DNA of 64,000 nucleotides from Deltaproteobacteria bacterium (GTDB lineage Bacteria > Myxococcota > Kuafuiibacteriia > Kuafuiibacteriales > Kuafuiibacteriaceae). The stretch covers positions 192,001-256,000 of the forward strand of contig JAVJQW010000017.1 of the NCBI GenBank assembly GCA_040218735.1, in the 5' to 3' direction. A program made the position numbers and the translations under genes. The first letter of the stretch is position 1, and every line of letters starts with the position of its first letter. Below, piece by piece: positions 2,531-28,670 of this stretch. The notes under the pieces are model-generated. The model had not been told where the DNA came from, made no database searches, and saw only the letters and a list, made by a program, of their open reading frames with translations.

Positions 2531-2542
2531 GCCCGTGACCAA

Positions 2543-2558
2543 CGCACGGCGTGTGCCA
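2543..2558 (-). promoter_or_regulatory. sigma54-type -24/-12 element
   Basis: Minus strand TGGCACACGCCGTGCG = GG-N10-GC. A perfect palindrome CGTGTCATGACACG lies upstream at 2591-2604. Confidence 0.55.
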
Positions 2559-2648
2559 GCCTGAATCACGCGTCCGCGGCGATTCGACGCCGTGTCATGA
2601 CACGACGGTCGTGACACAGCGACACAAAGCCCGGACACGCTTCGACGC

Positions 2649-4157
2649 TCAGCGCACCTGTTGCAGCAACCAGCCGTAGATGTCGTGGCCCGCGGACAGA
2701 TCGTAGGTCTGTGTCCACGAGTCGTGCGGGACGCCCGGGTAGGTGGTGAGGATGGCGTCGTCGCGCACCGGGCACGCGATGAGGTTGTTCATCGCCTGGA
2801 TGGTGCCCTGCGGGCTGACGACGGTGTCGCCCGTCCCGTGGAAGCCCCAGATCGCGACCGCGCCCAATGCGCAACCTGCGTTGCTGAACGCGTTGCGTCC
2901 GTCGCCCGCGATGAGCACCGCGCCCGCGACCTGACTGTCGAGGTGCACGCCGAGGTAGTTCCACGAGCCGATCGCGCCACAGCTCAGGCCGGTCAGGTGC
3001 ACGCGGTTGGGGTCGACGTTGTAGTTACTGACCGCCCACGCGATGAACGACTGGATCTCCGAAACGCCGGGGCAGCCACCGCCGGGGTGCTGCGGGGACA
3101 GCACGACCCACGGCCGGCTGTTCGGCCACTGGTCGTCGTCGATCAAACGCGGCGGGCCGTTCACGAGGACGCGGAAGAGGTCCGTCGATCCGTTCCCGTT
3201 CTCACCGACGCCGTGCCAGAAGACCATCAGCGGGTACGGCGCGCCCGACGCGTTGTAGTTCGGCGGGAGGTACTCGTAGAAGCCGTTGCCCGCGCCGGTG
3301 GTACCGAGGGGGCGCGCCGTGTGTCGCGTCGATGAGTTGCCGCCGCCGACCATGCCGCCGTCCCGCGGGCCACCGACGCCGCCGTCGAAGGACGAGCTGC
3401 CGATCGCGGGGATTGCAGTCTCCGCTTGGGAGGGGCTCGACCACAACAGGCGAATCACCGCGTCGAAGCCGGAGTCGTAGTACTCGAGCCGGATGTCGTA
3501 GGTCTGACCGGCCGTGAGCATCATCGTGCCGGTGTCGCGGGTGACACCGTGGTCGGTCCAGTTGTCGATGACCGCGTTGCCGTTGACGAAGAGGCGCACG
3601 CCGTCGTCCGACTCGGTGATGAACGTGTAGGTCTCCGAGTAGTCGGCCTGCACCGTCGCGGTCCAACGGATGGAGAAGTTGTCGACCGGGACGCCGGGCT
3701 GCGGCGAGCCCGCGCCCCAGTTGAAGTCGATGAACGCATCCTGGCGCGTCTCGATCGGCGAGCCGCCGAGCGCGGTGCCGAGGTAGACCTGCCCGTTGAA
3801 GAGCGCCTGGACCCCGCCGTCTCGCATGTTCTGCGGACCACCGTCGCGCGGGGGTTGCACACCACCGTCGCGCGGACCGGCGTCACGCACCGGGCCGGCG
3901 TCACGCGGCGGACCACCGTCGCGCGGCGGGCCGGCGTCGCGGTTGGGATCGAAGCCACCGTCGCGCGGCACGCCGCCGTCGGTGAAGCCCGCGTCGACGT
4001 TCGGGCCCCCGTCGCGCGGCACGGCCGGGCCGCCGTCGCGGTCGCCGGGCAGGATGATGATCTTGCCGCCGCCTCCGTCCCGAGCGTCGCCGTCTACGTC
4101 ACCCGCGCACCCCACGAACAGGAGACACGCCACCGCGATCGAGAACCGAACGGACAT
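2649..4157 (-). CDS. Lipoprotein: RDGG-repeat linker + PA14 domain + C-terminal alpha/beta hydrolase
   Basis: Lipobox LLFVGC; PA14 motifs IDFNWG, NFSIRW, SDDGVRLFVNG, IDNWTDH; hydrolase GLSCGA, HG..D, H.SW. Start reassigned to ATG 4157. Confidence 0.85.
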   Translation of the reverse strand: MSVRFSIAVACLLFVGCAGDVDGDARDGGGGKIIILPGDRDGGPAVPRDGGPNVDAGFTDGGVPRDGGFDPNRDAGPPRDGGPPRDAGPVRDAGPRDGGVQPPRDGGPQNMRDGGVQALFNGQVYLGTALGGSPIETRQDAFIDFNWGAGSPQPGVPVDNFSIRWTATVQADYSETYTFITESDDGVRLFVNGNAVIDNWTDHGVTRDTGTMMLTAGQTYDIRLEYYDSGFDAVIRLLWSSPSQAETAIPAIGSSSFDGGVGGPRDGGMVGGGNSSTRHTARPLGTTGAGNGFYEYLPPNYNASGAPYPLMVFWHGVGENGNGSTDLFRVLVNGPPRLIDDDQWPNSRPWVVLSPQHPGGGCPGVSEIQSFIAWAVSNYNVDPNRVHLTGLSCGAIGSWNYLGVHLDSQVAGAVLIAGDGRNAFSNAGCALGAVAIWGFHGTGDTVVSPQGTIQAMNNLIACPVRDDAILTTYPGVPHDSWTQTYDLSAGHDIYGWLLQQVR

Positions 4158-4204
4158 CGCTCGGCATTGTCCACACATTCGCCTCTGCGACCAAGCTCGG
4201 GAGG

Positions 4205-4408
4205 TTACTCGAACGCCTTCTTCGCCTTGTCGAGCGCATCCCCCGCGGCATCCATGGTCTTCCCGACGGCGTTCCGCTCCCAGTAGAAACACAGCGGCCC
4301 CGCCTCGGCCTTGCAGTCGGTGCCGACATCGTCCGCCTGCGAACGACCGACCACGCCCCACGACAGGACCGCGAGCAACACGAACAACACCAACGCGACC
4401 TTCTTCAT
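4205..4408 (-). CDS. Small secreted hypothetical protein (67 aa)
   Basis: Signal peptide MKKVALVLFVLLAVLSW, AGGAG RBS, two Cys. Confidence 0.7.
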   Translation of the reverse strand: MKKVALVLFVLLAVLSWGVVGRSQADDVGTDCKAEAGPLCFYWERNAVGKTMDAAGDALDKAKKAFE

Positions 4409-4415
4409 GACGCTC

Positions 4416-6065
4416 CTACTTGGCGCGCTCCGTCAGCCAACCGACGAGGTCCTTCAGCACCTCCGGCGACCACCGACGCCCACGATCCGCGTACGCCTCG
4501 AGCGTGGACGGCCCGGGCGTCGACTTCATCAGGTGATCGACGTCCGCGAACACGAACAGCTTCGCCTGACGACGCTTCCGCTTGTTGATCGCCTTCTCCA
4601 TCGCCTGCGCGTCGTCCTTCCACGAAGTCTCGAAGTCCTTCAGCCCCTGGAACACCGCGATCGGCTCTTCGACCTTCACCAGCTCACCGTCGACGTTCAA
4701 CTTCGACGCGCTCATCACGCGCCCCTGCGCCTCGCGGTACAACGCCACGATGCGCTGCGGGACCTGCGTCTCCGCAGCCGCGCTCCCGGAGAACAACGAC
4801 AACAGCACGTTCATTCTCCGCACCGCTTCGTCCGGCTTCGTGTCGTGTAGCTTCACCTCGCGCTCGGCGAGCACCTCGGGCACCGCGCGATAGGGCGTCG
4901 ACACGAGCACCAACCCCGCGAGCTCGACACGCTGCGCGACGAGGATCGCCTCGATCGCACCGAAGCCGTGCCCGATGACGAACAGCTTCTCCGGGTCCAC
5001 GCCCTTCTGCCGCTTCAGGAAGTCGAGCATCGCCTCCGCGTCGGACGCGCGCTGCTGCACGGTGACCTTCGACGGCTCGATGTCCGTCCGCGACGTCCCG
5101 ACGCCGCGATCGTCGAGGCGCAACACCGCGAAGCCCTCCTCCGCGAGGTGGTCGAACAGCTCCCACCGACCGTAGTCGACGGTGTGTCCGAAGCCGTGGC
5201 GGTTCGTCGCCGGCAGATCACCGAGCACCACCACGCCGGGCGCCAGCCCGTTCGACCAGCGCGCGCGGAGCGTCGGCACCGACAACACGCCGGCGTAACG
5301 ACCCTGCTCCACGTCGACGAGCACCTCGCGGTCCTCCCACGTCGCGGAGCGCGGGCGCTCGTAGCTCGCGGGTTGCGGCACGGGGAGCAGGCGCGGCGGA
5401 TCACTCGGCTTCGCCTCCAGCACGTACTTGCTCCCGTCGGCGCGCTCGAACGTCTTCACGTAACCGCGCGCGTCGAACGTCGCCTTGCCGCCCGGGAGCT
5501 GCACGACGGTGTTGCGGCTCGCGTCCGCGAAGACCTGCACGGGGACCGCCTCGGGTTCACCGGTCGACGGGATCCAGGTCGCGATCTTCCCGCTCTGGCC
5601 GGGCTCGAGCCCCGACTGACGCACCGCCGCGGCGATCGCGAGGAGGTCGTCACGACCGAGCATCAACGCACGCGACGCCACGTCGTACGGGACCTTCCGC
5701 TGCGCGATGTCGGTGATGATGCTGAGGAAACCGTCACGCGCCGCGACCTGCAGACGCCCCTCCACCGAGGACAGCCGCTTGTACGCGAGGAGTGATCCGT
5801 CCTCGCGCGTCGTCGTCGCGTACTCGACCGTCGCCGCGGCCGGGTCGCCGTAGGCCACGCGCGTCACGAGCTCGAGGCGCCCGTCACCGCGGGACACGCG
5901 GCCGTGCGCGCGACCGAGCGTACGCCCGGCGCCGTCCTGCAGGACGTACGTGACGACGTCCCCGTCCGCGAACGCCTCCCCGCCCGACGCGGGCTTCACG
6001 TCGACGTCCGGCGTGCTGCCTCCGCACGCGAAGAGAACAGAACAGGCGATCGGCAAGTAGCGCAT
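4416..6065 (-). CDS. Lipoprotein with alpha/beta hydrolase fold; nucleophile elbow reads GHGFG (no Ser)
   Basis: Lipobox VLFACG; motifs LRLDDRGVGTS, GHGFGA, FQGLKD, VDHL. TGATG overlap with the upstream gene. Confidence 0.8.
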   Translation of the reverse strand: MRYLPIACSVLFACGGSTPDVDVKPASGGEAFADGDVVTYVLQDGAGRTLGRAHGRVSRGDGRLELVTRVAYGDPAAATVEYATTTREDGSLLAYKRLSSVEGRLQVAARDGFLSIITDIAQRKVPYDVASRALMLGRDDLLAIAAAVRQSGLEPGQSGKIATWIPSTGEPEAVPVQVFADASRNTVVQLPGGKATFDARGYVKTFERADGSKYVLEAKPSDPPRLLPVPQPASYERPRSATWEDREVLVDVEQGRYAGVLSVPTLRARWSNGLAPGVVVLGDLPATNRHGFGHTVDYGRWELFDHLAEEGFAVLRLDDRGVGTSRTDIEPSKVTVQQRASDAEAMLDFLKRQKGVDPEKLFVIGHGFGAIEAILVAQRVELAGLVLVSTPYRAVPEVLAEREVKLHDTKPDEAVRRMNVLLSLFSGSAAAETQVPQRIVALYREAQGRVMSASKLNVDGELVKVEEPIAVFQGLKDFETSWKDDAQAMEKAINKRKRRQAKLFVFADVDHLMKSTPGPSTLEAYADRGRRWSPEVLKDLVGWLTERAK

Positions 6066-14383: not shown

Positions 14384-15258
14384 GCCGCCGACACGAGCTT
14401 CGGCGTCGCTGCGCCGAGGAACTGGTCCGGATCCTCGATCAACTTCTGCAGCCCCTCCAACGCGATCGCGCAGGTGAGCCCGTCCTCGACGCGCTCGTCG
14501 AACGCGTACTTCACTTCGACGATCTTGCGGACCTCGGTGCCCTCGTCGGTCGGCACGACGCGATCCTGCACGCGCCCGATGGTCGCGAAGAACGGACAGT
14601 TCCCCCACTCGTAGAGGTGATGGTACGCGGCGTCGAGGCCGACGCTCCCGAGGTTCGCGACGAACAGCGAGCAGAACATCCCGTCCGGATCCACGAGCGC
14701 ACCCGGCAACCAGCGACGACGCTGAAGCCACATCGCGAAGCGCGCGAAGAGGTTCACCAAGAACCCCGGCACCATCAGGAACAGGTCGTACTCCTTCTCG
14801 GCCGTCGTCTTCTCGCTGCGCCCCTTGTCGACCATCGCGACCACGCGGTCGTGCACGCGGATCGGATCGTCGTCCGGCTCCATCGGCACCTTGAGGAGCA
14901 CCACCTTCGCGTCGGCGGTCATCGCCTTCTTCACCGAGATCGTCAGGTGCACGCCGTCGCGCTGGTACATCCGGTACCCCGCGACGTAGCGATTCAGGTT
15001 CGGATTCGCGTGCAGGAGGCGCCCGGCCGCCGCGAGGTACACGTGCAAGAGCGTGAGGTGCTTGCCGGTCTGTTCGCGCTGACGTTCGAGCCACGCGCGC
15101 GTCTTCGTGAGATCCAGGGTCTGCGTGAAGTACACCGCCGCGCCGTTCCGGTCGGGCGAGATGTGCAGGTACATCCGGCGGTAGGGGGCGACGAGCTTCG
15201 TGACGTCTTGGTCTTTCGCGTACATCGGTTCTTCGTCCTTCTCTTCAGTGGATTTCAC
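14380..15258 (-). CDS. 2-oxoacid dehydrogenase E2 catalytic-domain-like acyltransferase
   Basis: NLGSVG, YHHLYEWG, FDERVEDG. Alternative start ATG 15225. Confidence 0.8.
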   Translation of the reverse strand: MKSTEEKDEEPMYAKDQDVTKLVAPYRRMYLHISPDRNGAAVYFTQTLDLTKTRAWLERQREQTGKHLTLLHVYLAAAGRLLHANPNLNRYVAGYRMYQRDGVHLTISVKKAMTADAKVVLLKVPMEPDDDPIRVHDRVVAMVDKGRSEKTTAEKEYDLFLMVPGFLVNLFARFAMWLQRRRWLPGALVDPDGMFCSLFVANLGSVGLDAAYHHLYEWGNCPFFATIGRVQDRVVPTDEGTEVRKIVEVKYAFDERVEDGLTCAIALEGLQKLIEDPDQFLGAATPKLVSAA

Positions 15259-16381
15259 TCTTGCGCCAACGACGCAGCGATCGCCGAAAGCTCTCCGCGC
15301 TCGCGAAGCCGAGCATCTCGGCGGCGCGTTCGGCCGGGACCCCTTCCCGGAGCAGCCGCTCGGCGCTCTGCTGGCGGAGGCCGTCGACGACCTTCGAGAA
15401 CGTGGTGCCCTCGTCGCTCAGTCGCCGCTGCAGAGTGCGCGGCGTGATCGCGAGGTGCTCCGCGACGCGCTCGAGCACCCGGCCGGCGACGCGGCTGCGC
15501 CGCGCCCCCTGGGCACCTCGCTCGCTTCCTCCCTCACGCGAGGGCGCGAGCTCGAGCACCCGGCCGGCGACGCGGCTGCGCCGCGCCCCCTGGGCACCTC
15601 GCTCGCTTCCTCCCTCACGCGAGGGCGCGAGCTCGAGCTCCAGGTCGTCGTATCCGAGCTGCTGCTCCACGACGTGACAGACCGTCGCCACGAACGACGA
15701 CGACTCGGGGCTGCGCTCCGCCGCCTGCTGCGCGAGGAACTCGTGCACGACCGGGTCCGACGACGTCAGCGCGAGCGCGGAACCCTCCGCACCGAGCGCG
15801 AAGCCGCAGCTGTCGGCGCCGTAGGTGATCGGACACAAAAAGTAGTCGTCGAGGCGCGCCGCGTCGCTCGGCGCTTCGTGTGCGAACCACACGCGCTCCA
15901 ACTCGATGGGGGCCGCGGCGACCAATCGAATCGCGCGCACCACGAACGCGATCGAAAACTCGTTCTGCAGCGCGCCCAGCCCCGAGCTCGATCCGAGGAC
16001 GAGGTACCGGAGCTCGACGCCCGCATCGACGTCCGACACCTCGAAGCGCCCGACGGGGTTGATCTGCCCGCCGTACCGCGCGAGCGCACGCAGCGCCTCC
16101 GCGACGGTCGGCGCGGTGCGCGCGAGGAGCTCGACGAGGCCGTACGTCCCCTCCGGGATCGCCTCCGCGAGCGTGAGGCCGAACGACGGATCCTTCCGGC
16201 GAACCGCCACGTCCTGGATCAACCCGCGCACCGACGACAGCGGCACCGTGCAGGAGCCCATCGCCGCGCTCTCGGGGAGGTGGTGCTTCGCGAGCAGCGC
16301 GGCGCGCTCGTCCGCGTTGGCGTTCGACAGCGACAGCAGCACCGGCGTGAGTCGGAACGTGAAGAGCGGGTCGCTTTTCAT
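15245..16381 (-). CDS. AraC-family regulator with 54-aa in-frame insertion in the HTH region
   Basis: RTAPTVAEAL..LARY, V.FAH; HTH LAITPRTLQRRL..EGTTF...LGFASAESFRR. Start ATG 16381. Confidence 0.88.
   Translation of the reverse strand: MKSDPLFTFRLTPVLLSLSNANADERAALLAKHHLPESAAMGSCTVPLSSVRGLIQDVAVRRKDPSFGLTLAEAIPEGTYGLVELLARTAPTVAEALRALARYGGQINPVGRFEVSDVDAGVELRYLVLGSSSGLGALQNEFSIAFVVRAIRLVAAAPIELERVWFAHEAPSDAARLDDYFLCPITYGADSCGFALGAEGSALALTSSDPVVHEFLAQQAAERSPESSSFVATVCHVVEQQLGYDDLELELAPSREGGSERGAQGARRSRVAGRVLELAPSREGGSERGAQGARRSRVAGRVLERVAEHLAITPRTLQRRLSDEGTTFSKVVDGLRQQSAERLLREGVPAERAAEMLGFASAESFRRSLRRWRKSEIH
15469..15638. repeat. Two exact tandem 81-bp palindromic units bounded by GCTCGAGC
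   Basis: Unit 1 15469-15549, unit 2 15550-15630, closing GCTCGAGC 15631-15638; encodes ELAPSREGGSERGAQGARRSRVAGRVL twice. Confidence 0.95.
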
Positions 16382-16412
16382 CGCGCCCGGACCGTGCCAC
16401 GCGAAGGCCAGG

Positions 16413-17633
16413 TCATCCAGCGCGCAGCGCGGGGGCATCGGCCTCCTCCTTCAGACCCGCGAGCTCGGCGAGCAGGTGCTGGGCGACGTCGGTCGAGCGA
16501 ACGAGCTGCTCGGGGTCGACGTTTTCGACGGTGTCGCTCGGGTGGTGGTAGCCGCGCGGCGCGTGCTGCTCGGGGTCGATGCAGGTCAACGCGATCGCGC
16601 GATAGCCGTACGCGAGGAACGGGAGCGCGTCCGTGCCCCCCGCGGGGACGACGTACTTCGGCACGGCCGGCTGTCCGGCGTTGGCGGCCGCGGCGTCGAC
16701 GGCGGCGACCAGCGAGGCGGGCCGCTCGATGCGGTACAGCTCGCCCTCCTCCAGCGCGAACAGGTCACCGTTGCTGAGGGTGTCGAGGATGATGATCTCG
16801 GTGTCGTCGCGCGACCACTCGCCCTGCATCGCCTTCACCAGCGCGTAGGCGCCACCGGTGCCGGCCTCCTCCGCGCCCGTGAATCCGAAGACAACCTCCA
16901 CGTCGTCCGCGGCGCGCTGCGCCCACGCCTCCGCGAGCACGACCTGGGCCGCGCAGCCGGTGAGGTTGTCCGCCGCCCCCGGGACGACTTCGTTCTGCAA
17001 GACGACTTGCGCATTGACTAGGAACACGAGCACCGCGGGGATCAACAGCACGTAGCCCGGCCAGCGCGGGAGCTCGAAGAGCACGGACGCGACTTCGAAC
17101 GCCGCCGCCAGGACGACGCCGACCAGCGGCAACGCGAGCTGCTTCTGCAGGAACGGGAGGAACGACGGGGGCGGCGCGGCCATCACCTTCAAGACCTCGG
17201 GACGGAAGAGGAAGCCGGTGTACGCGGAGTCGACGTGGGCGAGGAACACGAGGCGACGGCGCATGGGGCCCTTCGCCGGGCGCGTCGCGAGGAGGTTCTG
17301 GCTGGAGACCTTGGGCCAGAGGTGCCTGAGGATCAGGCCGCGGCGTGTCGCCTCCGAGAAGAAGCTCACCGCGACCAGCACGTGGCCCGCGGCGGCGAGG
17401 TAGGCCCATGGGAGGGCGGCGAAGGCGAGCGCCAACCCGAAGTGCAGCGCGAGGCTCCCGTAGATGTGGCGGGGGTAGCGGAACGCGTGCCACGAGACGT
17501 CGTAGCCGGCCTTCTCGAGGCGCGCTGCGATGGCGTCCTGCGCGGCGCGCTCGTCCGGAGTGCCCGTGAGGCGCGTGCGGGCGATCCCGCCCAGCCAGCG
17601 GAGGGTGGAGACGACGTCGTCGGAGGCGCGCAT
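16413..17633 (-). CDS. M28-family membrane peptidase
   Basis: LAHVDS, GAADNLTG, GAEEAG..GA, GGTDA, YHHPSDT; several TM helices. Start ATG 17633. Confidence 0.85.
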   Translation of the reverse strand: MRASDDVVSTLRWLGGIARTRLTGTPDERAAQDAIAARLEKAGYDVSWHAFRYPRHIYGSLALHFGLALAFAALPWAYLAAAGHVLVAVSFFSEATRRGLILRHLWPKVSSQNLLATRPAKGPMRRRLVFLAHVDSAYTGFLFRPEVLKVMAAPPPSFLPFLQKQLALPLVGVVLAAAFEVASVLFELPRWPGYVLLIPAVLVFLVNAQVVLQNEVVPGAADNLTGCAAQVVLAEAWAQRAADDVEVVFGFTGAEEAGTGGAYALVKAMQGEWSRDDTEIIILDTLSNGDLFALEEGELYRIERPASLVAAVDAAAANAGQPAVPKYVVPAGGTDALPFLAYGYRAIALTCIDPEQHAPRGYHHPSDTVENVDPEQLVRSTDVAQHLLAELAGLKEEADAPALRAG

Positions 17634-17706: not shown

Positions 17707-17788
17707 TTGCGACTCCTGCAACTCGGGGCGCCGCGCGGGTTCACTTGCGGGTGGGTGCAAGAGATCCGGTGTCGGCATGGCCTTTGCT
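17707..17788 (+). promoter_or_regulatory. Double TTGC-N7/8-GCAA sites + sigma54 -24/-12 element
   Basis: TTGCGACTCCTGCAA (17707-17721), TTGCGGGTGGGTGCAA (17745-17760), CGGCATGGCCTTTGCT (17773-17788). Near-identical cassette at 23928-24009. Confidence 0.75.
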
Positions 17789-17800
17789 CAGCAGCCACCG

Positions 17801-20746
17801 GTGAGCCGGATCAATCGACGCGAGTTCAGGACCCTCTCCGACCACAACGGTCGGCTGAACATCAACCGGATGCCTCCGCGGTTGATGCGGTCGCTCGAGT
17901 CGCACGGCGTCAGCCGCGCCGAGCTCTCCCGAATCGCCGGCGACGACCACGTCATCTCTGGGCCGGAGTTCAACGCGCTCTTCGACGCGCTGACGGCGCG
18001 CGCAGAACGCGGGGGCAGCGGCAACGACCGCGGCGTGAGCGAAGACCTCTTCAGCTCCCTCGCGTCCCGCATCGAACGGGACGGCGCGACCGAGCGAACG
18101 TCGGACTCGACCCGCTCCACCGTCGGCATCGGCGGGCGCGTGTCGGCGCGTCCCGGGACGGTCGAGACCGACGACGGCACGGCCAACCTGGACGAAGCCG
18201 CCGACCTCGAAGGCCGCACCGACGGCCAGCAGGCGTGTTGGTTCGTCGCGATGCTCCAGTGCATCGCCGAGTTCTTCGTCGAGACGATCGGCGGCGGCGA
18301 CTACATCCGCACCGCCGAGCGCGACGAGGCGCTGGGACGCGAGCTCGGTCGAAACCACGGTGAGTCGCTCCGCGCGATCCTCGACGAGCCGGGCGGCGAA
18401 GACGCCATCCGCGCCCAACTCCAGTCGCAGCGCCCGGAGGGCACCAGCGAGAACGACTGGAACCAGACCGTGAACCAGGTGATGCGCGGCATCCGCGCCG
18501 AGATCGCGAGCGGGCCCGATCTCCCCGACGACGTGGCGCCGTCCGCCGACCTCCTCGTCCGCGACCGCGCCGCCGTGCTCTACGCCGCGAACGACGACGC
18601 CGCCGCGCGCGCGGAGCTCGGCGCGACCGTCGAAGCGCTCGCGCAGAGCGGGCTGTCGACCGAGACGCAGCTCGCCTTGCTGAACCAGTGGGAGTCCGCC
18701 GGGCGTCCCGCCGAGTTCCGCCAGCAGCTCGAAGGTGTGACGCAGGCGCTGGCCGGGCGGAGCGAAGCCGTGCAGACCGCCGCGCGCGAGCAGCTCGACG
18801 CCCACCCCGAGCGCTTCGGTCGGCTCAGCGGTTTGATCCGATCGACCGGGTTCGGGAGCGACCGCATCTCGGACGACGCGCGCATCGCCGCGCTCCGCAC
18901 CACGGGCACGGACACCGCGGAAGCGGTCGCGAACCTCGACCGCCTCGTCGCCGCGGACGGCTTCGAGCGCGTCTCCCCCGAGGTCCAGACCCGCTACGTG
19001 AACATGATGCTCGACGAGTCGGTCGACGCCCGCGAGAAGACGCGCTCGCTTCAGCTCCTCGACGGCGCGCAGACCGGCGACATGGCCGGCATCAACAACG
19101 TGCTCTTCGGCGACGCGACGCTCCAGGCGGGATCGCAGGGCGACGAGGTTCGCCTCGTGCAACGCTACTTGCGCGGCCTCGGCTACGACGGCGTGCTCGG
19201 CATGACCGAGGGCAACACGTTCGACGCGGGGACGACGCGAGCCGTGGAGGCGTTCCAACGCCGCGCCGGCCTCCTCGACGGCAACCCGCCGGCCGCCACC
19301 GCTGGCGTCGTGAACCAGGCGACGATGCGCGCGATGGTGCACGCGCTCCACGCACGCGGGATGGACGCGAACGCCTTCCGCTTCACGACGGACCTGAGCC
19401 TCAACCGCCCCACGCGCGCGACCGACGGTCCGTGGCGCGCGACGCAGCGGTGGACGCCCGCGCTCCAGCAGGAGTTCGAGCAGTTCGCGGACGCGTACGT
19501 GAAGGCGCGCATCCCGCGGCACCCGAACGGACAGGCGCGGCTCCCCGAGTGGGGTGAGCGCGTCGACTGCGCGGACCTCTCGTACGAGGCGTTGATCCAG
19601 TTCGCGCGTCAGCGCGGCCTCCCGATCTCCCTGAGCAACGGCCAGACGACGTTCACGCACCGCAGCCGCGGACCGATCGTCGGACGCGTGCAGAGCGCGA
19701 TGGGCGCGATGCACCTTCGCCAGAACACACGCCCGCTCGGCGAGGGTGAGCTCCCGCGCCCCGGCGACCTCGGCAACATGGACTGGGACCAGAGCGTCGG
19801 CGACGGGCACGACAGCCGCTACTGGCACTCCCACAACATCGTCGACTTCGACCCGCTCTTCCACGAGGCGACGGTCGTCTACGGCAGCCTCGACGACCTC
19901 GTGAAGGAGAGCGCGCTCCAGCGCTTCAACGGGACCGACTACAACCTGACGATCCACGACATCCGCGAACGCGAGATCATCGACGCGATCAACGACGACA
20001 GCGGGCAGAACCGCCAGCAGCCGCGCGCGGAGCAGGAGCGCCGCGTGCGCGAGCTGTTGGAAGGGCACCGCACGGACGCGAGCCGACCCGTCTCGGACGC
20101 CGACGTGAACCGGTTCATCACGATGGTCTCGAACGACGCGAACCTGCACCGCAACGCGCCGACCGCCGTCTCCACGCGCGACGACGCGTTCACGAGCCTG
20201 GTGGAGGGCGGGCGGACCTGGGCCGACCCCACCGCGCGGGCCGCCGCGGTCGCGGACCTGAACCAGCGCTTCGGTGCGCGCTTCACGGAGGCCGACATCG
20301 ATCGCCTCGTCACGGTCTCGAACAGCCGACCGCCGCGCGGCATGACGCGACGGCAAGCGGTGACGCAGGAAGCGGCGCGCCTCGTCGCAGCGCGTGTCCC
20401 CGAGGGCCGTCGCGAGGGCGCGGCCGACGCGCTCCTCGCATCGACGCGGGGCGCGGTGCGCTACCACGCGGTGCGCGACGCCGTGTCGGACCCGGGGCTC
20501 AGGAACACGGCACGCGCCGACTTCAACCGCACCTTCGGCGCGCGCGTGACGGACCGCGACATGGTATCGATCCTTCGGGCCGGTGACGGGAGTGCACGAC
20601 GAGTGGCGGAGGGCATCGTGGCGCGACGTGGCGTCCCGGCCGAGCGCCAGGCCGAGGCCGCGCAGGCGCTCCTCGACGCCGTCGATGGCTCGCGCCGGTT
20701 CCGGAGGTGGGATTTCGATGCGTTCAACGCCGCTCGCGGCCATTAG
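17801..20746 (+). CDS. Large protein with peptidoglycan-binding domain and putative Cys/His (NlpC/P60-like) catalytic domain
   Basis: PG-binding-like LQAGSQGDEVRLVQRYL..LGY...FDAGTTRAVEAFQR..GL...GVV..ATMRAM; VDCADL, PGDL, WHSH. The ORF-track ATG 17777 lies inside the sigma54 element, so GTG 17801 is preferred. Confidence 0.75.
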   Translation: MSRINRREFRTLSDHNGRLNINRMPPRLMRSLESHGVSRAELSRIAGDDHVISGPEFNALFDALTARAERGGSGNDRGVSEDLFSSLASRIERDGATERTSDSTRSTVGIGGRVSARPGTVETDDGTANLDEAADLEGRTDGQQACWFVAMLQCIAEFFVETIGGGDYIRTAERDEALGRELGRNHGESLRAILDEPGGEDAIRAQLQSQRPEGTSENDWNQTVNQVMRGIRAEIASGPDLPDDVAPSADLLVRDRAAVLYAANDDAAARAELGATVEALAQSGLSTETQLALLNQWESAGRPAEFRQQLEGVTQALAGRSEAVQTAAREQLDAHPERFGRLSGLIRSTGFGSDRISDDARIAALRTTGTDTAEAVANLDRLVAADGFERVSPEVQTRYVNMMLDESVDAREKTRSLQLLDGAQTGDMAGINNVLFGDATLQAGSQGDEVRLVQRYLRGLGYDGVLGMTEGNTFDAGTTRAVEAFQRRAGLLDGNPPAATAGVVNQATMRAMVHALHARGMDANAFRFTTDLSLNRPTRATDGPWRATQRWTPALQQEFEQFADAYVKARIPRHPNGQARLPEWGERVDCADLSYEALIQFARQRGLPISLSNGQTTFTHRSRGPIVGRVQSAMGAMHLRQNTRPLGEGELPRPGDLGNMDWDQSVGDGHDSRYWHSHNIVDFDPLFHEATVVYGSLDDLVKESALQRFNGTDYNLTIHDIREREIIDAINDDSGQNRQQPRAEQERRVRELLEGHRTDASRPVSDADVNRFITMVSNDANLHRNAPTAVSTRDDAFTSLVEGGRTWADPTARAAAVADLNQRFGARFTEADIDRLVTVSNSRPPRGMTRRQAVTQEAARLVAARVPEGRREGAADALLASTRGAVRYHAVRDAVSDPGLRNTARADFNRTFGARVTDRDMVSILRAGDGSARRVAEGIVARRGVPAERQAEAAQALLDAVDGSRRFRRWDFDAFNAARGH

Positions 20747-21338: not shown

Positions 21339-21934
21339 AGAAGAACGACCGCTCGGATCGCGCGCTCGGCATCCGCGCGAGCCGGTGTGTCGCCGCGAAG
21401 ACGTTGGACCTCGACGGGCCCCACGCGCGCTTCGCGCAGGACTACCAACCGACGCCCCCCGAGATCCTCGACGACCTGCTCGTGGATCTCGACGTCGCGT
21501 TCGACGCGTACACCTTCGTCGATCTCGGCGCGGGCAAGGGGCGGGTGTTGTGCCTCGCGACGCAGTGGCCGTTCTCGCGGGTCGTCGGGGTGGAGCTGTC
21601 ACGAACGCTCGTGGCGCAGGCGGAAGAGAACCTCGGGGGCTACGCCGCCGAGATCCGACACGGCGACGCCGCCGCGTTTGTCTTCCCGGCGTCGCCGCTC
21701 GTCGTCTTCATGTACAACCCGTTCGACGCACCGGTCGTTCGCGCCGTGCTCGACAACCTCGAGCGCTCGCTCGAGGAGCACCCGCGCGACGTGCGCATCC
21801 TCTACTTCGAGCCGGTGCACGACGCCGTCGTACGCGAGCGCTGGTGGATCGAACCCGAGCGCGCCGCGCCGCGGTGGGCGCGTTACACCGCGAGCTTCGG
21901 TCGTGCGAACGGGCGTGCAGCCTCCAGCGCGTAG
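21335..21934 (+). CDS. Class I SAM-dependent methyltransferase
   Basis: YQPTP, FVDLGAGKGRVL, GVELS, GDA, FMYNPF; GTGA overlap with the upstream gene. Confidence 0.88.
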   Translation: MKKNDRSDRALGIRASRCVAAKTLDLDGPHARFAQDYQPTPPEILDDLLVDLDVAFDAYTFVDLGAGKGRVLCLATQWPFSRVVGVELSRTLVAQAEENLGGYAAEIRHGDAAAFVFPASPLVVFMYNPFDAPVVRAVLDNLERSLEEHPRDVRILYFEPVHDAVVRERWWIEPERAAPRWARYTASFGRANGRAASSA

Positions 21935-23268
21935 GCCAGACCGAACAACACGTCCTCGCGTCCGACGTGCGCTGCGAAGTGCATCCCGATCGGGAGGCCA
22001 TCGTCCGTCAGGCCCGACGGCACGGACATCGCGGGCACCCCGGCGATGCTGTGGATCGGCGTGTACCCGGCGAGGCGTTGCGTCTGGTGCACGAGCTCCT
22101 CGCGGGACTTGGTCGGCGCGAGGGTCCCGAGCGGCGGAGCCGGATCGGGGGTCGTCGGGCACAAGAGCACGTCGAAGGCCTCGATATACTCGAGATACTT
22201 CGCTGCCGCGGTCGCCGTGGCGGCGCGTGCCTTGTCGAGCGCGTCGGGAGGCTGCTGCCCGAACCACGCGAGGAGCTCCAGCGTGAACGGTTCGAGATCG
22301 TCAGCACCGAGCGTGCGGCCCACGAGGCCTTCGACCATCGCCTTGAAACCCGCGACGCTGGCCCCCGCCGCGACGAAGAAGGCGTCCCGGATGTCGGCGC
22401 CCTCGACGCGCGGAGCGTCGGCCTCCACGACCTCGTGGCCCAGCTCCGAGAGCAACGCGACCGTCGAGTGCAGCGACCGCGTCACGGCTTCGGACGCGGC
22501 TCCGCCGAGGAGCGTCGTCCCGTAGAAGCCGATGCGGAGCCGGCGGTCGGAGGGTTCGAGCACGAGCGGCATCCGTTCGATCGCGTCGCCTTGTGTCGCG
22601 TGGAGGAGCCGCGCGCTGTCGCGCACCGTTCGACTGACGCAGTGCTCGGTGAGCATCCCCAGCAGATCAGCCGCCTCCATCCCCGTGGGGAGCGTTCGAC
22701 CGCGCGTGGGTTTCATCCCGAACAGCCCACACGCTGCGGACGGGATGCGGATCGATCCACCCCCGTCGCTCGCGTGCGCGAACGGCACGTACCCGGCGGC
22801 GACCGCCGCCGCGGATCCTCCCGAGGAGCCCGTCGCGGAGCGCGCGAGGTTCCACGGGTTCTTGGTGGGCCCGTGCAGCAGCGTCTCCGTGCTGCCGAGC
22901 AACCCCAGCTCTGAGGTCGTCGTCTTGCCCAGTGTGACGAGGCCGGCCGCGTCGAACGCGGCGCTGTACGGCGACCCCTGGGGCGGCACGAAGCGCGCGA
23001 GCGCGCGGGAGCCGCAGGTGTTGGGCAGGCCGGGGTACGCGAGGAGGTCCTTCAGGAGGAACGGCACCCCCGCGAACGGGCCTTCGCTGACGTTCGCCGC
23101 GGCAGCGCGCGCGCGCTCGAAGTCGTGCGCCGCGAGCGCGCCGATCGTGGGTTCGAGCGCCTCGATGCGTTCGATCGCGGCGTCGACGAGCTCGACGGCG
23201 CTGACCTCGCGCTTGCGAACGAGGTCGGCCATGGCGGTGGCGTCCAGTGTTTGAAAGTCAGCTTGCAT
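21883..23268 (-). CDS. Amidase (amidase signature family)
   Basis: GVPFLLKDL, GSSGGSAAAVAAG, SDGGGSIRIP. Confidence 0.93.
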   Translation of the reverse strand: MQADFQTLDATAMADLVRKREVSAVELVDAAIERIEALEPTIGALAAHDFERARAAAANVSEGPFAGVPFLLKDLLAYPGLPNTCGSRALARFVPPQGSPYSAAFDAAGLVTLGKTTTSELGLLGSTETLLHGPTKNPWNLARSATGSSGGSAAAVAAGYVPFAHASDGGGSIRIPSAACGLFGMKPTRGRTLPTGMEAADLLGMLTEHCVSRTVRDSARLLHATQGDAIERMPLVLEPSDRRLRIGFYGTTLLGGAASEAVTRSLHSTVALLSELGHEVVEADAPRVEGADIRDAFFVAAGASVAGFKAMVEGLVGRTLGADDLEPFTLELLAWFGQQPPDALDKARAATATAAAKYLEYIEAFDVLLCPTTPDPAPPLGTLAPTKSREELVHQTQRLAGYTPIHSIAGVPAMSVPSGLTDDGLPIGMHFAAHVGREDVLFGLAYALEAARPFARPKLAV

Positions 23269-23884
23269 TTCTCACCCACTCCTTGAAGCCCGCGATCCCC
23301 GCGAGCTGGTAGCTCCAGAACGCCGCAAAAGCGCGGCGGATGTCGGCCTCGTCCTCGTGGTTCTCGAGGATCGAGACGATCGCGCGCAGCGACGTCGTGA
23401 AGATGTTGTCGAGCGTGAACCGGATGGTCTTGCTCACCACGATCCCGGGGACCTCGTGCCGCAGCTTCGCGACGGTGAGGGCGACGAGGCGCTCCACGAA
23501 CCGCGCGCCGAAGTCGGCGTAGGCCGAGCCCTCGGCGCGATCGAGCAGGACCACCACGCGGAGGCGGTGCTCGATCCAGAACGCGAGCATCGACTCGGCG
23601 TCGCCTTCGGCGCGTGCGTCGAGCTGGCCGAGATCCTCGAGCTCGACGAGCGAAGCGACACGACGATCCACGAGTCGCATCAGCTCGTCGGCGAAGGCCT
23701 CCGTGAAGACGCCGTAGAACAGCGCCTCCTTGTTCTCGAAGTACCGGTAGACGTTGCCGGTCGAGATCTGGGCTGCCTTGGCGATCGCCCCCATCGTCGC
23801 GCCCGCGTAGCCGCGCTCCGCGAAGACACGCTCCGCCGCCTCGACGATGCGCTGCTCGACCTCGGCTTTACGTCGCTGCACCAC
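23258..23884 (-). CDS. TetR/AcrR family regulator
   Basis: IVEAAERVFAERGYAGATMGAIAKAAQISTGNVYRYFENKEALF. Confidence 0.93.
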   Translation of the reverse strand: MVQRRKAEVEQRIVEAAERVFAERGYAGATMGAIAKAAQISTGNVYRYFENKEALFYGVFTEAFADELMRLVDRRVASLVELEDLGQLDARAEGDAESMLAFWIEHRLRVVVLLDRAEGSAYADFGARFVERLVALTVAKLRHEVPGIVVSKTIRFTLDNIFTTSLRAIVSILENHEDEADIRRAFAAFWSYQLAGIAGFKEWVRNAS

Positions 23885-23922
23885 CCAAAAATGAACATGT
23901 CATTCATTTTTGGATTCGTCAA
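23885..23922 (-). promoter_or_regulatory. TetR operator palindrome overlapping a sigma70-like promoter
   Basis: Perfect 11-bp inverted repeat CCAAAAATGAA-N7-TTCATTTTTGG (23885-23913); TTGACG-N17-CATGTT on the minus strand. Confidence 0.8.
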
Positions 23923-23927
23923 CGGGG

Positions 23928-24009
23928 TTGCGACTCCTGCAACTCGAGCGCCCCGCGCCCGGTCACTTGCAGCGGGCTGCAAGGAGCGCGGCCTGGCCCG
24001 CATCTTGGA
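23928..24009 (+). promoter_or_regulatory. Double TTGC-N7/8-GCAA sites + sigma54-like element (-12 variant TTGG)
   Basis: TTGCGACTCCTGCAA (23928-23942), TTGCAGCGGGCTGCAA (23967-23982), TGGCCCGCATCTTGGA (23994-24009). Confidence 0.7.
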
Positions 24010-24021
24010 ACGTTGGCCCCC

Positions 24022-25176
24022 ATGGGCACTCCAGACGTGCGCCGGGGCCGATCGACGCTCCCGATCCATCAGCCGACGGTCGCGCGACCGAACGTCACGC
24101 GCACCGGGCCTTCGGCGCCCGACGCGCCGGCGGTCGAGGGGCCCCGCGGACCGCGCTGGTCCCAGACCCCCGCGTGGGCGGAGCGAGCCGGCGCCGCGAA
24201 CGAGGGCGGCGGCGCAGAGCCGACCTACCAAGGCCCGCCCGCGGCGCGCCTCGGTGCGGGGAGCGAACGCCCCATCGCCGACGACCCGCAGCGTGCACGT
24301 CCCGCCGATCGCCCCGCCGACACCCCCGGCATCGGCGCGCGCACCACGCGCACGAAGGACACGAAGGACCCGCCCACGGCGCAACGTAACTTGCCGCCGA
24401 TCCGCTACGACTCCGCGGACGCCGGAGACTTCTACTGCGAGCACGTCTTCCACGTCGCGCAGCGCGAGGCGCTCGCGTCGTCGAGTTCCGTGATGCGCAA
24501 CGGCCAGGGTGAGCGGCTCGTCGGCTTCATCCACATCCCGCAGGACAGCCAGGCGACGCAGGCTCCGGACCCGACGCCCACGGACGCGGAGCAGGCGGCC
24601 CGACACGCCCAGACCCGGCAGGTGGTCGGCGCGGGCATCGCCGGCTACTTCGACGAAGCGCGCACGCAGACGGACGGCCCGGTGCGCATCATGCTGAGTG
24701 GGTTCGGGACGTTCGGCTCGTTCACCAACAACCCGTCGGGGGACTTCGTCTCGCACCGCGCGAACATCGACGCGGCGATGGAGGAGGCCTTCGGCGCGAA
24801 CCTCGTCGGACGACCGCCGGCGAACGCGGACATGAACCAACCGCTGACGTACCGCGTGCGCCAGCAGGACGGAACGGAGCGCGAGGTGCAGATCCGCGCG
24901 GTGAGGCTATCGGTGGACGATGCGGCGCTCGACCCAGCGCGCGCCGGATCGATCCCCCACACCATGCGGGACTTCGCACCGCACGCGGTGATCTCGATGG
25001 GTCTGCGGCCCGGGAGCCAGACGCACTACGACGTCGAGAACCACGCCGACGACGGCGGCCTCGCGACCGGGTCGAACGGCACGTCCACGCACCAACGCGG
25101 ACGTGCCTCTTCGACCGACTACGCCAACCGCAGCCTCGAGCGCGCGATCGAGAGCGCCCGGCAGACCGCGCCCTAA
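24022..25176 (+). CDS. Circularly permuted pyroglutamyl-peptidase I (C15)-like protein with disordered N-terminus
   Basis: SADAGDFYCEHVF (Cys) and GFIHIP (His) precede IMLSGFGTFG..NNPS, VISMG and VENHA (Glu), the reverse of the canonical order. Confidence 0.82.
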   Translation: MGTPDVRRGRSTLPIHQPTVARPNVTRTGPSAPDAPAVEGPRGPRWSQTPAWAERAGAANEGGGAEPTYQGPPAARLGAGSERPIADDPQRARPADRPADTPGIGARTTRTKDTKDPPTAQRNLPPIRYDSADAGDFYCEHVFHVAQREALASSSSVMRNGQGERLVGFIHIPQDSQATQAPDPTPTDAEQAARHAQTRQVVGAGIAGYFDEARTQTDGPVRIMLSGFGTFGSFTNNPSGDFVSHRANIDAAMEEAFGANLVGRPPANADMNQPLTYRVRQQDGTEREVQIRAVRLSVDDAALDPARAGSIPHTMRDFAPHAVISMGLRPGSQTHYDVENHADDGGLATGSNGTSTHQRGRASSTDYANRSLERAIESARQTAP

Positions 25177-28100
25177 GGCAGGTACGAGACGCGGCTGTAC
25201 GCGCCCTGCGACCACATCCGGTAGACGTCGCGGTTCACGTCGGTGTTCGGCGCGCCCACGCGCGTCGTCACCGGGAACGAGCCCGACACGTCCGAGACCC
25301 AGACCTCGTCCGCGCCGGCGGTCGTGAACGCACCTTCGAAGATCAGGCGCTGGCCATCCGCGGTCCAGAACCAGTCCCAGTTCCCCGCCCAGCTCGTGCT
25401 CATCGAAGCGTCGCTGGTCGTCGACACCGCGTTCGGGTGCACCTTGCGCTGCGGGCCCGGCGCCGAGCCGCTCACGTTCACGACGTACAGCTCGTACGTG
25501 CTCGACAGATCGAGCGTGCCGACGTAGGCGATGCGGTTCCCGTCCGGCGACCACTGGAACGACGTCACGTCGTTCGACGTGGTGAGCGCCGGCGTGTTGA
25601 CGCGGATCGATGCGTAGGGCGGGCCCTCTTCGAGGTCGACGAGGTACAGCTCCTCCGCACCGTCGAGGCTCAAGTCACCGATGTACGCGATGCGGGAGCC
25701 GTCGGGTGAGAACTCGTAGTCGAGCTTCGCGTCGGCGCCCATCTCGAGCGTGGACAACCCGTTCGTCGCGGACAGCTTGTACCGCGGCTGCGGGAGCGAG
25801 CCCGAGACGTCGACGATGTACAGCTCCTCGGCGAGGTTCACGTCGAGGTCACCGCGCATCGCGATGCGCTGGCTGTCGGGCGACCACTTCGCGCTCGTCA
25901 GCACGAGGTCACGCACGGGCGTCTCGATCGTCGCGCGCTGCCACGCGCCGGGGACGCTGCCGCTGATGTCGACGATGTAGAGCGCGTACGCGAAGTCGAC
26001 CTCCTGGTCTGCGATGTAGAAGAGCTTCGTGCCGTCGGGCGAGACACTCCAGTACTGCCAGTGGTCCGTCGTCGTGCTGATCTGCACGCCGCCGAGCGCC
26101 ACCATCGGACCGCTCACGACGATCGGCGTACCGAGCACACCACCGGTGGTGTCGACCCAGAACAGCTCGTTCTCGCTCGCGATGTTGAAGTCCGCGTTGA
26201 AGATCAGCGCGCGTGAGTCCGGCGTCCACTGGAAGTTCCCGTTGATGTCCGTCAGCGACGCCGGGTTCGAGAAGACCGGCGTGAGCGGGCCTGGCGCACC
26301 CCCGGCGGGGAGCGCGGAGAGGTCGACGAAGAAGAGCATGTCGTCCGACGACACCTCGTCGGCGATGAACGCGATCTTCGTGCCGTCCGGCGAGAAGTGG
26401 TAGTCGGGCAGGTACACCTCGGTCGCCGAGGAGACGTACGCCGAGCTCACGCGCACCGCCTGTCCAGGCGCCGCGGGGTTCGTGACGTCCACGACGAACA
26501 GCTCCTCCGCGAGGCTCGTGGTGACGTCGGCGCGGAACGCGAGCTTGGTGCCGTCGGGCGACCAGCGAAGGTCGACCGCGGACTGCGCGCCCGAGAAGCC
26601 GAGCCCGCCACTCACGACGATCGGCTCGCTGGGCGTGCCGCTGCGGAGGTCGACGACGTACACGTCGTCTTGGGCGTCGACGGTGAGGTCGCCGATGAAC
26701 GCGAGCGCGTTGCCGTTCGGCGAGAACGCGACCGAGAACGTGGCGTAGTCGACGTTGCCGCCGCTGACGGGGGCCGCCGGCATCGCGGGGATCGGCGTGG
26801 GCACGCCGGGCGTGCAGACCTCGCCGAGGACGATCATGTCGGACGCGCTGACGACGAAGTCACCGACCGCCGCGACCCAGCGTTGACCGCCAGGAAGATC
26901 GGCGACGTCGATCGTGAAGGTGCGCTCGTCGGTCAGGCCGAACGTGTCGGTGAGACGAATCGTGAAGTTGTACGAGGAGGCCGTCGCGCCCGTGGGCCCG
27001 CCCAGCGTCGCCGAACGCGACCCCGACCCCAGCACGATGCCGGGCGGCAAAGCGCCGTTCACGACCGACCACTGGTAGCCGCCGTTGCTGCCGCCGGTGC
27101 CCTGGATGATCGTGCGGTACGTGCTGCAGAACGGCGCGTCGGGCACCGTCATCGTGGTGATCGTCGGGAGCGTCGACGGGGGATCGACGGTGATCTGCAC
27201 GGGCACCGACGCCGTCGCGTTGTTCCAGTCGTAGACCGTGACCGTCGCGGTAAACGTGCCGAGCTGCAGCGCCGCACCGCTGATGACCGTCGACGGCGAA
27301 CCAGGCACCTGCAGCGTGAGGCCGTTCGGCAACGCCCCGCTGCTGACGACCCAGTTGTACTGACCGAACCCATCCTGAGCGGTGAGCATCGCCGAGTACG
27401 CTTCACCGCCCACGGCGTTCGGGAGGACGATCGTCTGACCGCCGCCCACGATCGTGATCGGGAAGACCTGCTCGGCCACGTTCAGGATCAGGGTCTGATC
27501 GTCGGAGCCACCGCGCGCGTCCGTTACCTCGATCTGAATCTCGAAGGTCCCGAACTCCGTCGGTGTGCCGACGATGCGCGTCGACGGACGGCCCCCGGGC
27601 TCGAGCGTGAGGCCCGCCGGGAGGCGGCCGTTGACGATCGCCCACGTGTAGTCACCCGCGCCGTTCAGCGCGGCGATCGTCGCCTCGTACGCCGCGCCGA
27701 CCATCGCCGGCGGCAACGAGATCGTCGTGATGCGCACGGCGGGCGGCGGCTCGGAGATCTCGAGGAAGAACGTCTTGCGAGCGCGCTGGCCCTCGGCGTC
27801 CTCCGCCTCCACCTGAACCGTGAACGTGCCGGACTCCGTCGGTGTGCCGGACAGACGCGCGGTCGTGTCGTCGACGCGCGTGAGCGCGAGGCCGGGCGGG
27901 ATCTGCCCGGCACCGCGACGGAAGACGGTCCCGCCGACGCCGCCCATCACTTCGATCGTCGCGTCGTAGGGCTGGCGCTGTTCGGCCGTGGGGAGCGAGG
28001 TCGTCACGAACACGAGCGGCAACGTGTCGTCGACGATCTCGATCGTGTAGCTCTGCCGCGCGCTGCCGCTGTCGTCGTCACGCACTTCGATCGTAAAGGT

Positions 28101-28670
28101 GTACGACCCCTCCGAGCCCGCCGGGAGATCGCCATACAGACGTGTGCTCGGCGTACCCGTCGCCTCGAGCATCAGGCCGGCCGGGAGCGTCCCCGACGCC
28201 ACGCGCCAACGGTAGCCGTCGTTCGATCCGCCCGTCGCTTCGATCGTCGCGTCGTAGGTCGTGCGCGTCGCGGCGTTCTGCAAATCCAGCGTACGGATCG
28301 CGAGCACCGGCGGCAGGTCGCCCACCACGATCGTGAAGGGCCGCGCGTCCTTGGTGCCGACGCTGTCCTCGACCTCCACCGTGAAGGTGAATGAGCCCAG
28401 CTCGGTGGGCGTACCGCTCAGTCGCGTCGCCGGGGTGCCGGACGTGCGGAGCGAGAGACCGTTGGGGAGCGCGCCGGACGTCACCGACCACTTGTAGTCG
28501 GTCTCCGTCCCGCCGCTCGCTTCGATGGAGGCCGCGTACGGGGTCCCGATCTCTGCATCGGGTACCGTCTCGGTCTCCAAGACGATCGCCACCGGCGGGG
28601 CCACGGGCTCGGTGCCCGAGCAAGCCGTCAGGAGGACGATAGGAACAGCCAGAAGGGGGAGTTGCTTCAT
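25173..28670 (-). CDS. Large surface lipoprotein: about six putative Ig (He_PIG-like) repeats + TolB/PD40-like beta-propeller
   Basis: Lipobox LLTACS; repeats Y.W....G.LP.GL.L...ISGTPT..G.F.F.V.V.D; C-terminal WSPDG/FSPDG repeats. Confidence 0.85.
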   Translation of the reverse strand: MKQLPLLAVPIVLLTACSGTEPVAPPVAIVLETETVPDAEIGTPYAASIEASGGTETDYKWSVTSGALPNGLSLRTSGTPATRLSGTPTELGSFTFTVEVEDSVGTKDARPFTIVVGDLPPVLAIRTLDLQNAATRTTYDATIEATGGSNDGYRWRVASGTLPAGLMLEATGTPSTRLYGDLPAGSEGSYTFTIEVRDDDSGSARQSYTIEIVDDTLPLVFVTTSLPTAEQRQPYDATIEVMGGVGGTVFRRGAGQIPPGLALTRVDDTTARLSGTPTESGTFTVQVEAEDAEGQRARKTFFLEISEPPPAVRITTISLPPAMVGAAYEATIAALNGAGDYTWAIVNGRLPAGLTLEPGGRPSTRIVGTPTEFGTFEIQIEVTDARGGSDDQTLILNVAEQVFPITIVGGGQTIVLPNAVGGEAYSAMLTAQDGFGQYNWVVSSGALPNGLTLQVPGSPSTVISGAALQLGTFTATVTVYDWNNATASVPVQITVDPPSTLPTITTMTVPDAPFCSTYRTIIQGTGGSNGGYQWSVVNGALPPGIVLGSGSRSATLGGPTGATASSYNFTIRLTDTFGLTDERTFTIDVADLPGGQRWVAAVGDFVVSASDMIVLGEVCTPGVPTPIPAMPAAPVSGGNVDYATFSVAFSPNGNALAFIGDLTVDAQDDVYVVDLRSGTPSEPIVVSGGLGFSGAQSAVDLRWSPDGTKLAFRADVTTSLAEELFVVDVTNPAAPGQAVRVSSAYVSSATEVYLPDYHFSPDGTKIAFIADEVSSDDMLFFVDLSALPAGGAPGPLTPVFSNPASLTDINGNFQWTPDSRALIFNADFNIASENELFWVDTTGGVLGTPIVVSGPMVALGGVQISTTTDHWQYWSVSPDGTKLFYIADQEVDFAYALYIVDISGSVPGAWQRATIETPVRDLVLTSAKWSPDSQRIAMRGDLDVNLAEELYIVDVSGSLPQPRYKLSATNGLSTLEMGADAKLDYEFSPDGSRIAYIGDLSLDGAEELYLVDLEEGPPYASIRVNTPALTTSNDVTSFQWSPDGNRIAYVGTLDLSSTYELYVVNVSGSAPGPQRKVHPNAVSTTSDASMSTSWAGNWDWFWTADGQRLIFEGAFTTAGADEVWVSDVSGSFPVTTRVGAPNTDVNRDVYRMWSQGAYSRVSYLP

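Follow-up and report, generated by a model that had tools for sequence, protein, structure and literature searches.

The described system closest to the gene reported here is pyroglutamyl-peptidase I, or pyrrolidone-carboxylate peptidase (PCP; MEROPS family C15, clan CF; PF01470; PDB 1AUG, 3RNZ, 5Z48, and 2EBJ). Many bacterial PCPs are dimers or tetramers. Natural circular permutations are known in many folds, and naturally permuted cysteine hydrolases exist in folds other than that of C15, e.g., the permuted NlpC/P60 papain-like enzymes. C15 is given as the sole family of clan CF, and its members release N-terminal pyroglutamate via a triad of Glu, Cys, and His (PMC12445089). Pyroglutamyl-peptidase domains have also been noted in toxin systems, in a single sentence that makes no mention of permutation (PMC3482391). 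We found no permuted form of C15 in the open-access literature, which omits most structural papers on these enzymes.

Protein P0001, encoded in the 64-kb window (the whole stretch of DNA that was analyzed), resembles C15 peptidases in the fold over canonical residues 1–130, in the motifs around Cys and His, in the Glu, Cys, and His residues themselves, and in most positions of the pocket. It differs from them in the order of Cys, His, and Glu, in the termini, which lie at canonical 130/131, in an insertion of ∼35–40 amino acids, in a rebuilt loop after Glu, in the replacement of Asn145 by Glu-His, and in a long disordered N-terminal tail; moreover, it falls below all curated cut-offs. As in the permuted NlpC/P60 enzymes, the catalytic residues have swapped their order in the chain and the active site would be rebuilt in space, although the fold is different. 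The C15-type domains of toxin systems may likewise occur in an exported setting, but, in contrast to those systems, P0001 has no RHS, PVC, or immunity context around it (PMC3482391). Natural permutation as such is known; what stands out here is how large the hidden permuted family is, together with the changes around its active site and the cassette in the promoter region. In our assessment, P0001 is probably an active cysteine peptidase of the C15 fold, circularly permuted once, long ago, for which we propose a pyroglutamate-type reaction.

Circular permutation of the C15 domain

P0001 carries a genuine, circularly permuted pyroglutamyl-peptidase I (C15) domain. This had been proposed in a sequence-only reading of the window, and is confirmed at the levels of sequence, profiles, family, and fold. 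Translation places the Cys block SADAGDFYCEHVF at 24412–24450 and the His block VGFIHIP at 24520–24540, followed by the usual N-terminal block IMLSGFGTFGSFTNNPS at 24688–24738, by HAVISMG at 24982–25002, and by VENHAD carrying Glu339, exactly as that reading had it, with Cys139, His171, and Glu339 all within one ORF of 384 aa (Table 1). The catalytic order along the chain is Cys, His, Glu, compared to Glu, Cys, His in canonical C15, and therefore P0001 is filed as a permuted homolog rather than as a canonical C15 member.

Table 1. Coordinates of the permuted peptidase gene, its parts, and the associated promoter elements in the window.
Feature	Position	Strand	Details
ORF of P0001 (permuted C15-like cysteine peptidase)	24022..25176	+	384 aa; translation and homolog family
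Low-complexity N-terminal extension, residues 1–123	24022..24390	+	composition, pLDDT
Permuted first half, residues 124–216	24391..24669	+	canonical residue 131 onward; HH-suite, alignment, TIGR00504 profile 133–179
Permuted second half, residues 217–384	24670..25173	+	canonical 1–130; HH-suite, VIA-align
Catalytic Cys139 (canonical Cys144)	24436..24438	+	kept in 149/150 cores; column alignment
Catalytic His171 (canonical His167/168)	24532..24534	+	kept in 149/150 cores
Catalytic Glu339 (canonical Glu81)	25036..25038	+	kept in 141/150 cores; column alignment
Two TTGC-N7/8-GCAA palindromes, putative activator sites	23928–23942, 23967–23982		also at the 17707 cassette and in L001
Sigma54-like −24/−12 box	23993..24009	+	12 nt before the ATG of P0001
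Second cassette copy and gene	17707..20746	+	cassette 17707–17788; probable start GTG 17801, 981 aa

Using HH-suite with 29 aligned canonical sequences as the target, for which an annotated pcp gene served as the anchor, we matched residues 124–178 of P0001 to canonical 131–174 with the probability of 97.6, and residues 222–344 to canonical 3–86 with the probability of 99.0. A single colinear C15 alignment was also considered and rejected, the whole P0001 core aligning through its second half only. Pyrrolidone-carboxylate peptidases accounted for 21 of the 22 PDB matches at E≤10 of the 25-member family profile (best E 3e-4), and here, too, the order was swapped, with profile positions 176–297 corresponding to PCP 2–82 and positions 81–129 to PCP 126–166.

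The two partial Peptidase_C15 matches that had been expected from HMMER did not materialize, as PF01470 had no match at all on P0001; on 25 family members it yielded sub-threshold matches in 14 (best E 0.0014). NCBIfam models matched P0001 weakly and partially (TIGR00504, E 6e-4, 19.9 bits vs. the cut-off of 201.75), so that none of the curated cut-offs (PF01470, TIGR00504, PRK13197) was reached. The phmmer search of P0001 against PDB sequences produced one irrelevant match (E 0.55). Since Pfam and the single-sequence PDB search found nothing relevant, family-level tests were needed to recognize P0001. It is best filed in a circularly permuted C15-like subfamily that departs from C15 membership in two features, the residue order and the curated cut-offs.

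Predicted structure

The AlphaFold2 model of the P0001 core is a confident single domain (pLDDT 93.9, pTM 0.93). The first half consists of a strand, the helix with Cys139, the strand with His171, and a long helix equivalent to the canonical C-terminal one; in the model, this old C-terminal helix (188–214) is followed by a short linker and the old first strand (221–228). The second half carries the insertion of ∼35–40 amino acids, within residues 246–290, and the rebuilt loop after Glu.

VIA-align superposed P0001 219–384 on PCP 1–130 with Z of 6.0–6.6, rmsd of 3.4–3.9, and 113–120 aligned residues, PCPs occupying the top seven rows, and in a wide search over 48,161 chains the top two were again PCPs (Z 6.1 and 5.9). 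The values of 6.0–6.6 are below 8, hence modest, and refer to one half of P0001 only, because VIA-align is a sequential aligner. From this superposition, the chain is opened at canonical 130/131. As modeled, P0001 has the alpha/beta fold of PCP, recognized by VIA-align in one half and by the profile match (97.6) in the other. In addition, Peptidase_C15 clusters ranked first in the Atlas feature search. Foldseek of P0001 against PDB gave no match at E≤0.001 and no PCP among the matches listed. That both Pfam and Foldseek miss the family illustrates how a permutation can conceal a fold that is already known.

The rearrangement has joined the old C-terminal helix to the old first strand and opened the chain immediately before the strand leading to the catalytic Cys. 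The two halves would then rebuild the usual Glu-His-Cys triad, and the permutation itself was probably close to neutral for catalysis. This natural permutation shows where the C15 fold can be opened, and provides a ready-made scaffold to study or engineer an enzyme used for unblocking proteins.

The permuted family

About 180 uncharacterized relatives share the rearrangement, and those traced to a genome are mostly from myxobacteria-like bacteria. The core homolog search returned 25 proteins including the cluster of P0001 itself, the others being 37–83% identical to it, and all aligned in the same order. An exhaustive phmmer search over representatives at 50% identity yielded 200 matches at E≤0.001, and the family counts from this search rest on 150 listed of the 200. 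The sequence-only reading had suggested looking for homologs with the same order, and these proved abundant: among the matches listed, half-profiles classified 167 of 175 proteins as permuted, the rest being one canonical protein, six fragments with one half, and one protein without a match. Another 38 proteins came from a later search; by the motif order, 12 of them were permuted, 25 canonical, and one unresolved. Identity of family members to P0001 ranges from 24 to 83%. Having excluded 25 of the 175 proteins as incomplete, canonical, or spurious, we retained a core alignment of 150 complete cores; P0145 (2444 aa), a repeat protein matched spuriously, was removed.

The twelve GTDB loci with homologs are labeled Myxococcota, Myxococcales, Deltaproteobacteria, or unclassified bacterium, whereas most other members carry no taxonomic label; judging from these relatives, the host of the window is probably Myxococcota-like. 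That P0001 arose as an artefact of assembly, or from gene fragments that came to lie side by side by chance, is exceedingly improbable, and nothing was found in favor of it. Misassembly is excluded by the order of the halves, which 167 of 175 independent proteins share, by the twelve GTDB loci, and by synteny with locus L001, the closest relative; furthermore, no second C15 piece was found in any frame of the 64-kb window.

In the FastTree phylogeny of concatenated halves, one branch with the support of 0.987 parts 45 permuted sequences, sampled from the 150 cores, from 29 canonical ones, both sets having been gathered by similarity to a permuted query or profile. This fits a single origin of the permutation, as judged from the sequences sampled. 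Tandem-duplicated C15 intermediates were not seen by half-profiles among the 175 proteins in the matches listed. Adjoining the permuted branch is the clade of P0175, a C15 protein in the canonical order but reduced to 160 aa, which has the DAGDFYC and LPV-x-D motifs in common with the permuted family and offers a lead to the donor lineage.

Some sequence sources already name members of the family “pyrrolidone-carboxylate peptidase,” with no sign that the swapped order was recognized. Pfam had no match in 26 of 30 long family members; the remaining ones included one protein each with patatin, PLAT, and DUF1553, as well as a weak match to C15. The permuted domain stands behind large N-terminal regions in P0126 (1354 aa), in P0035, P0075, and P0107 (949–971 aa), and in P0046. 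P0126 combines a patatin domain with a degenerate triad (Ser, Asn, Glu), while Pfam matched nothing in the N-terminal regions, ∼700 aa long, of P0035, P0075, and P0107. Searches of plasmid sequences with P0182 and of phage sequences with the permuted core gave no matches.

Active site and specificity

By column comparison, Glu339, Cys139, and His171 align with canonical Glu81, Cys144, and His167. The claim that the catalytic set is intact has held up, as all three residues are kept in 140 of 150 cores, a triad residue being missing from the alignment in the other ten. Indirectly, through three residues conserved across a family at 24–83% identity, P0001 is predicted to be functional. It could instead be a homolog that folds yet is catalytically dead or degenerate, which would agree with Asn145 and the canonical post-Glu loop having been lost and with the failure of every curated model to reach its cut-off; we consider this very improbable, given that Cys, His, and Glu are kept in 149, 149, and 141 of 150 cores, respectively, over deep divergence.

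The permuted family retains the G-F/Y-x-x-F/W motif, Asn-Pro, Val at canonical 45, Gly70, and Glu81, as well as the A/P-G-x-F/Y-Y-C and F-x-H-x-P motifs. These presumably include most of the pyrrolidone-ring pocket of the Bacillus amyloliquefaciens structure; we take the pyroglutamate pocket and its loop to comprise Phe10, Phe13, Asn19, residue 45, Arg91/Ile92, Phe142, and Val143. Canonical positions 10, 13, 19, 45, and 142 are kept in P0001, and position 143 is Tyr. In 45 permuted sequences, the pocket columns are kept: F/Y228, N237, and F/Y137 are present in 45 of 45, and F/W231 and V298 in 44 of 45. The canonical Arg91–Asp94 loop is not alignable in the permuted sequences.

If the triad is rebuilt in this manner, Cys139 would attack an amide bond beside a small ring or acyl group, which would be held in a pocket of Phe228, Phe231, Asn237, Val298, Phe137, and Tyr138. 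The likeliest reaction would be removal of N-terminal pyroglutamate or of a similar blocked N-terminus, with a possibly broader specificity, since the loop after Glu is replaced.

Other surroundings of the active site have changed. Asn145, present in 29 of 29 canonical sequences, is replaced by Glu in 32 and by Ala in 10 of the 45 permuted ones, and a new His follows this position in 42 of 45, P0001 having Glu140-His141. Pro-Asp after Glu (Asp in 27 of 29 canonical sequences) is absent from 40 of 45 permuted sequences. In the permuted family, this loop has given way to D-D-G-G-L followed by a hairpin in which a His is conserved. Asp300 stands where canonical enzymes have an aromatic residue. 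The insertion of ∼35–40 residues occurs in many members, including P0001, while the shortest members lack it. As the loop after Glu has been rebuilt and the invariant Asn145 has become Glu-His, a shift in specificity is possible, and the specificity for pyroglutamate may have been lost or shifted in the permuted family. The sequence-only reading had allowed for altered substrate access; judging from the alignment, this is plausible as a consequence of the rebuilt loop and of the Asn-to-Glu-His change adjacent to Cys rather than of the permutation itself.

A different interpretation of the same permuted fold and triad is that they have been repurposed in an exported effector or a lytic enzyme (a deamidase, an isopeptidase, or a cell-wall peptide amidase) with type III-like delivery in a predatory, myxobacterium-like host. 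We regard this as possible, if rather unlikely. The conserved residues specific to the family, Glu140-His141, Asp300, Asp343/344, and His357, would agree with such a change of function, whereas the residues of the pyroglutamate-ring pocket, being largely kept, argue against it.

N-terminal extension

The N-terminal extension of P0001 had been described as Pro/Thr-rich and ∼120 aa long. The length was close (123 residues), but the composition is rather Pro/Ala/Arg/Gly/Thr-rich, with 20 Pro, 19 Ala, 16 Arg, 14 Gly, and 13 Thr. Most of residues 1–108 have pLDDT below 50, indicating predicted disorder, and hence nothing points to a prodomain with a fold of its own. No hydrophobic stretch resembling a signal peptide was found in the extension.

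Extensions of at least 40 aa are present in 96 of 150 cores; they are Ser/Thr/Pro/Ala-rich across the family, and 91 of the 96 have no window resembling a signal peptide, which would be in line with a repurposed effector. On the other hand, the extension is very short or missing in 54 of 150 cores, and in a few members the N-terminus resembles a signal peptide. The catalytic Cys lies within the first 40 residues in 38 of 150 cores. The D-x-F motif, chosen after inspecting the extensions, was found in 20 of 70 of them, compared to 5.3 ± 2.1 in shuffled sequences, with none of 2000 shuffles reaching 20; this too would favor an effector, although the motif is absent from P0001.

Disordered tails without a signal resemble type III export signals. 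The N-terminus of P0001 is likewise disordered and has no Sec signal, as in substrates of the type III kind, but this feature is weak, and low-complexity tails are not specific to secretion. Possibly, the tail directs the export of P0001 by a route independent of Sec, this being the weakest step of the proposed mechanism. Pfam found no secretion genes among 12 proteins of the window or 46 neighbor ORFs, which speaks against export of an effector. At the same time, sigma54 control of type III secretion genes has been reported in Desulfovibrio (PMC4641369), and the effectors of the myxobacterial T3SS* are described as unknown (PMC10433427). Taken together with the pyroglutamyl-peptidase domains of toxin systems (PMC3482391), these reports make export of the permuted family plausible.

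Promoter cassette and a putatively co-regulated gene

The P0001 gene is preceded by a cassette consisting of two palindromes 38–39 bp apart, a sigma54-like box, and, 12 nt further on, the start codon. The same layout is found at 17707–17801 and 23928–24022 of the window and at 5543–5635 of L001. The palindromes of the second copy lie at 17707–17721 and 17745–17760, and the copies at 23928 and 17707 share 19 identical bases. Taken alone, the box at 23993–24009 is at the chance level (one match vs. 1.04 expected); it fits 11 of 14 consensus positions, with GG instead of GC at −12, while the copy at 17772 has GC at −12 and fits 12 of 14. However, all 17 bases of the box before P0001 are the same in L001, while the flanks diverge. 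The 12-nt spacing between the box and the start would imply nearly leaderless transcripts.

In 11 of the 12 related loci, the cassette was not found; apart from its two copies in the window, it occurs in L001 only. The sequence-only reading had placed the gene in a sigma54 cassette regulon: the shared cassette is real in this lineage, but it is not a trait of the family, and the sigma54 label comes from resemblance. In this lineage, an activator acting at a promoter of the sigma54 type would probably switch on the gene along with that of a putative cell-wall hydrolase.

The latter is encoded downstream of the second cassette copy. Because the cassette has the start codon 12 nt after the box, the true start of the ORF at 17777 is suggested to be the GTG at 17801. 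The resulting 981-aa protein (17801–20746, + strand) has a PG_binding_1 domain (PF01471, E 5.8e-10) and no obvious signal peptide, and its gene is syntenic in L001. Its Cys/His domain has the Atlas TM of 0.44–0.48 to CHAP/NlpC-P60 clusters, a lead only. This protein is a candidate secreted peptidoglycan hydrolase. The promoter cassette offers a testable handle on co-regulated hydrolases lacking signal peptides in an uncultured lineage.

Sharing the cassette with a gene for a peptidoglycan-binding, CHAP-like protein is a further point for a repurposed effector. In its boldest form, this would make the permuted C15 proteins a hidden family exported by predatory myxobacteria-like bacteria under a dedicated sigma54 activator cassette with a cell-wall hydrolase, lysing or digesting prey with a new substrate specificity, a scenario that we consider decidedly unlikely. 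If true, the permuted family would be a candidate substrate of a myxobacterial type III-like system, and the promoter cassette would become a search key for the rest of the effector set.

Gene neighborhood

Beyond L001, no conserved operon context was found among the 12 loci, and as the neighborhood is not conserved, the gene context does not point to a substrate. Pfam annotation of 46 of 88 ORFs neighboring the homologs was heterogeneous. In L007 (6281–11358) and L008 (1499–5997), from Myxococcales/Deltaproteobacteria, the peptidase homolog is followed by cyanophycin-synthetase-like and Mur-ligase-like genes that are not found in the other ten loci. In L003, a divergent gene at 520–4629 (− strand) encodes a protein of 1370 aa that combines a PPDK_N domain with an N-terminus rich in Thr and Pro, and is thus another tailed gene adjoining a member of the permuted family.

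Several other features were observed in the window. A perfect inverted repeat (23885–23913), with arms of 11 bp separated by 7 nt, lies directly before the divergent TetR gene (23258–23884, − strand), and is likely the operator of the tetR–amidase pair (21883–23884). The AraC-family gene at 15245–16438 (− strand) contains a tandem 81-nt duplication (15466–15627, 99% identical), which yields an in-frame repeat of 27 aa. Finally, the gene at 25173–28670 (− strand), whose stop overlaps that of P0001 by 4 nt, encodes a lipoprotein-like protein of 1165 aa, in which six putative Ig repeats and a beta-propeller were recognized.
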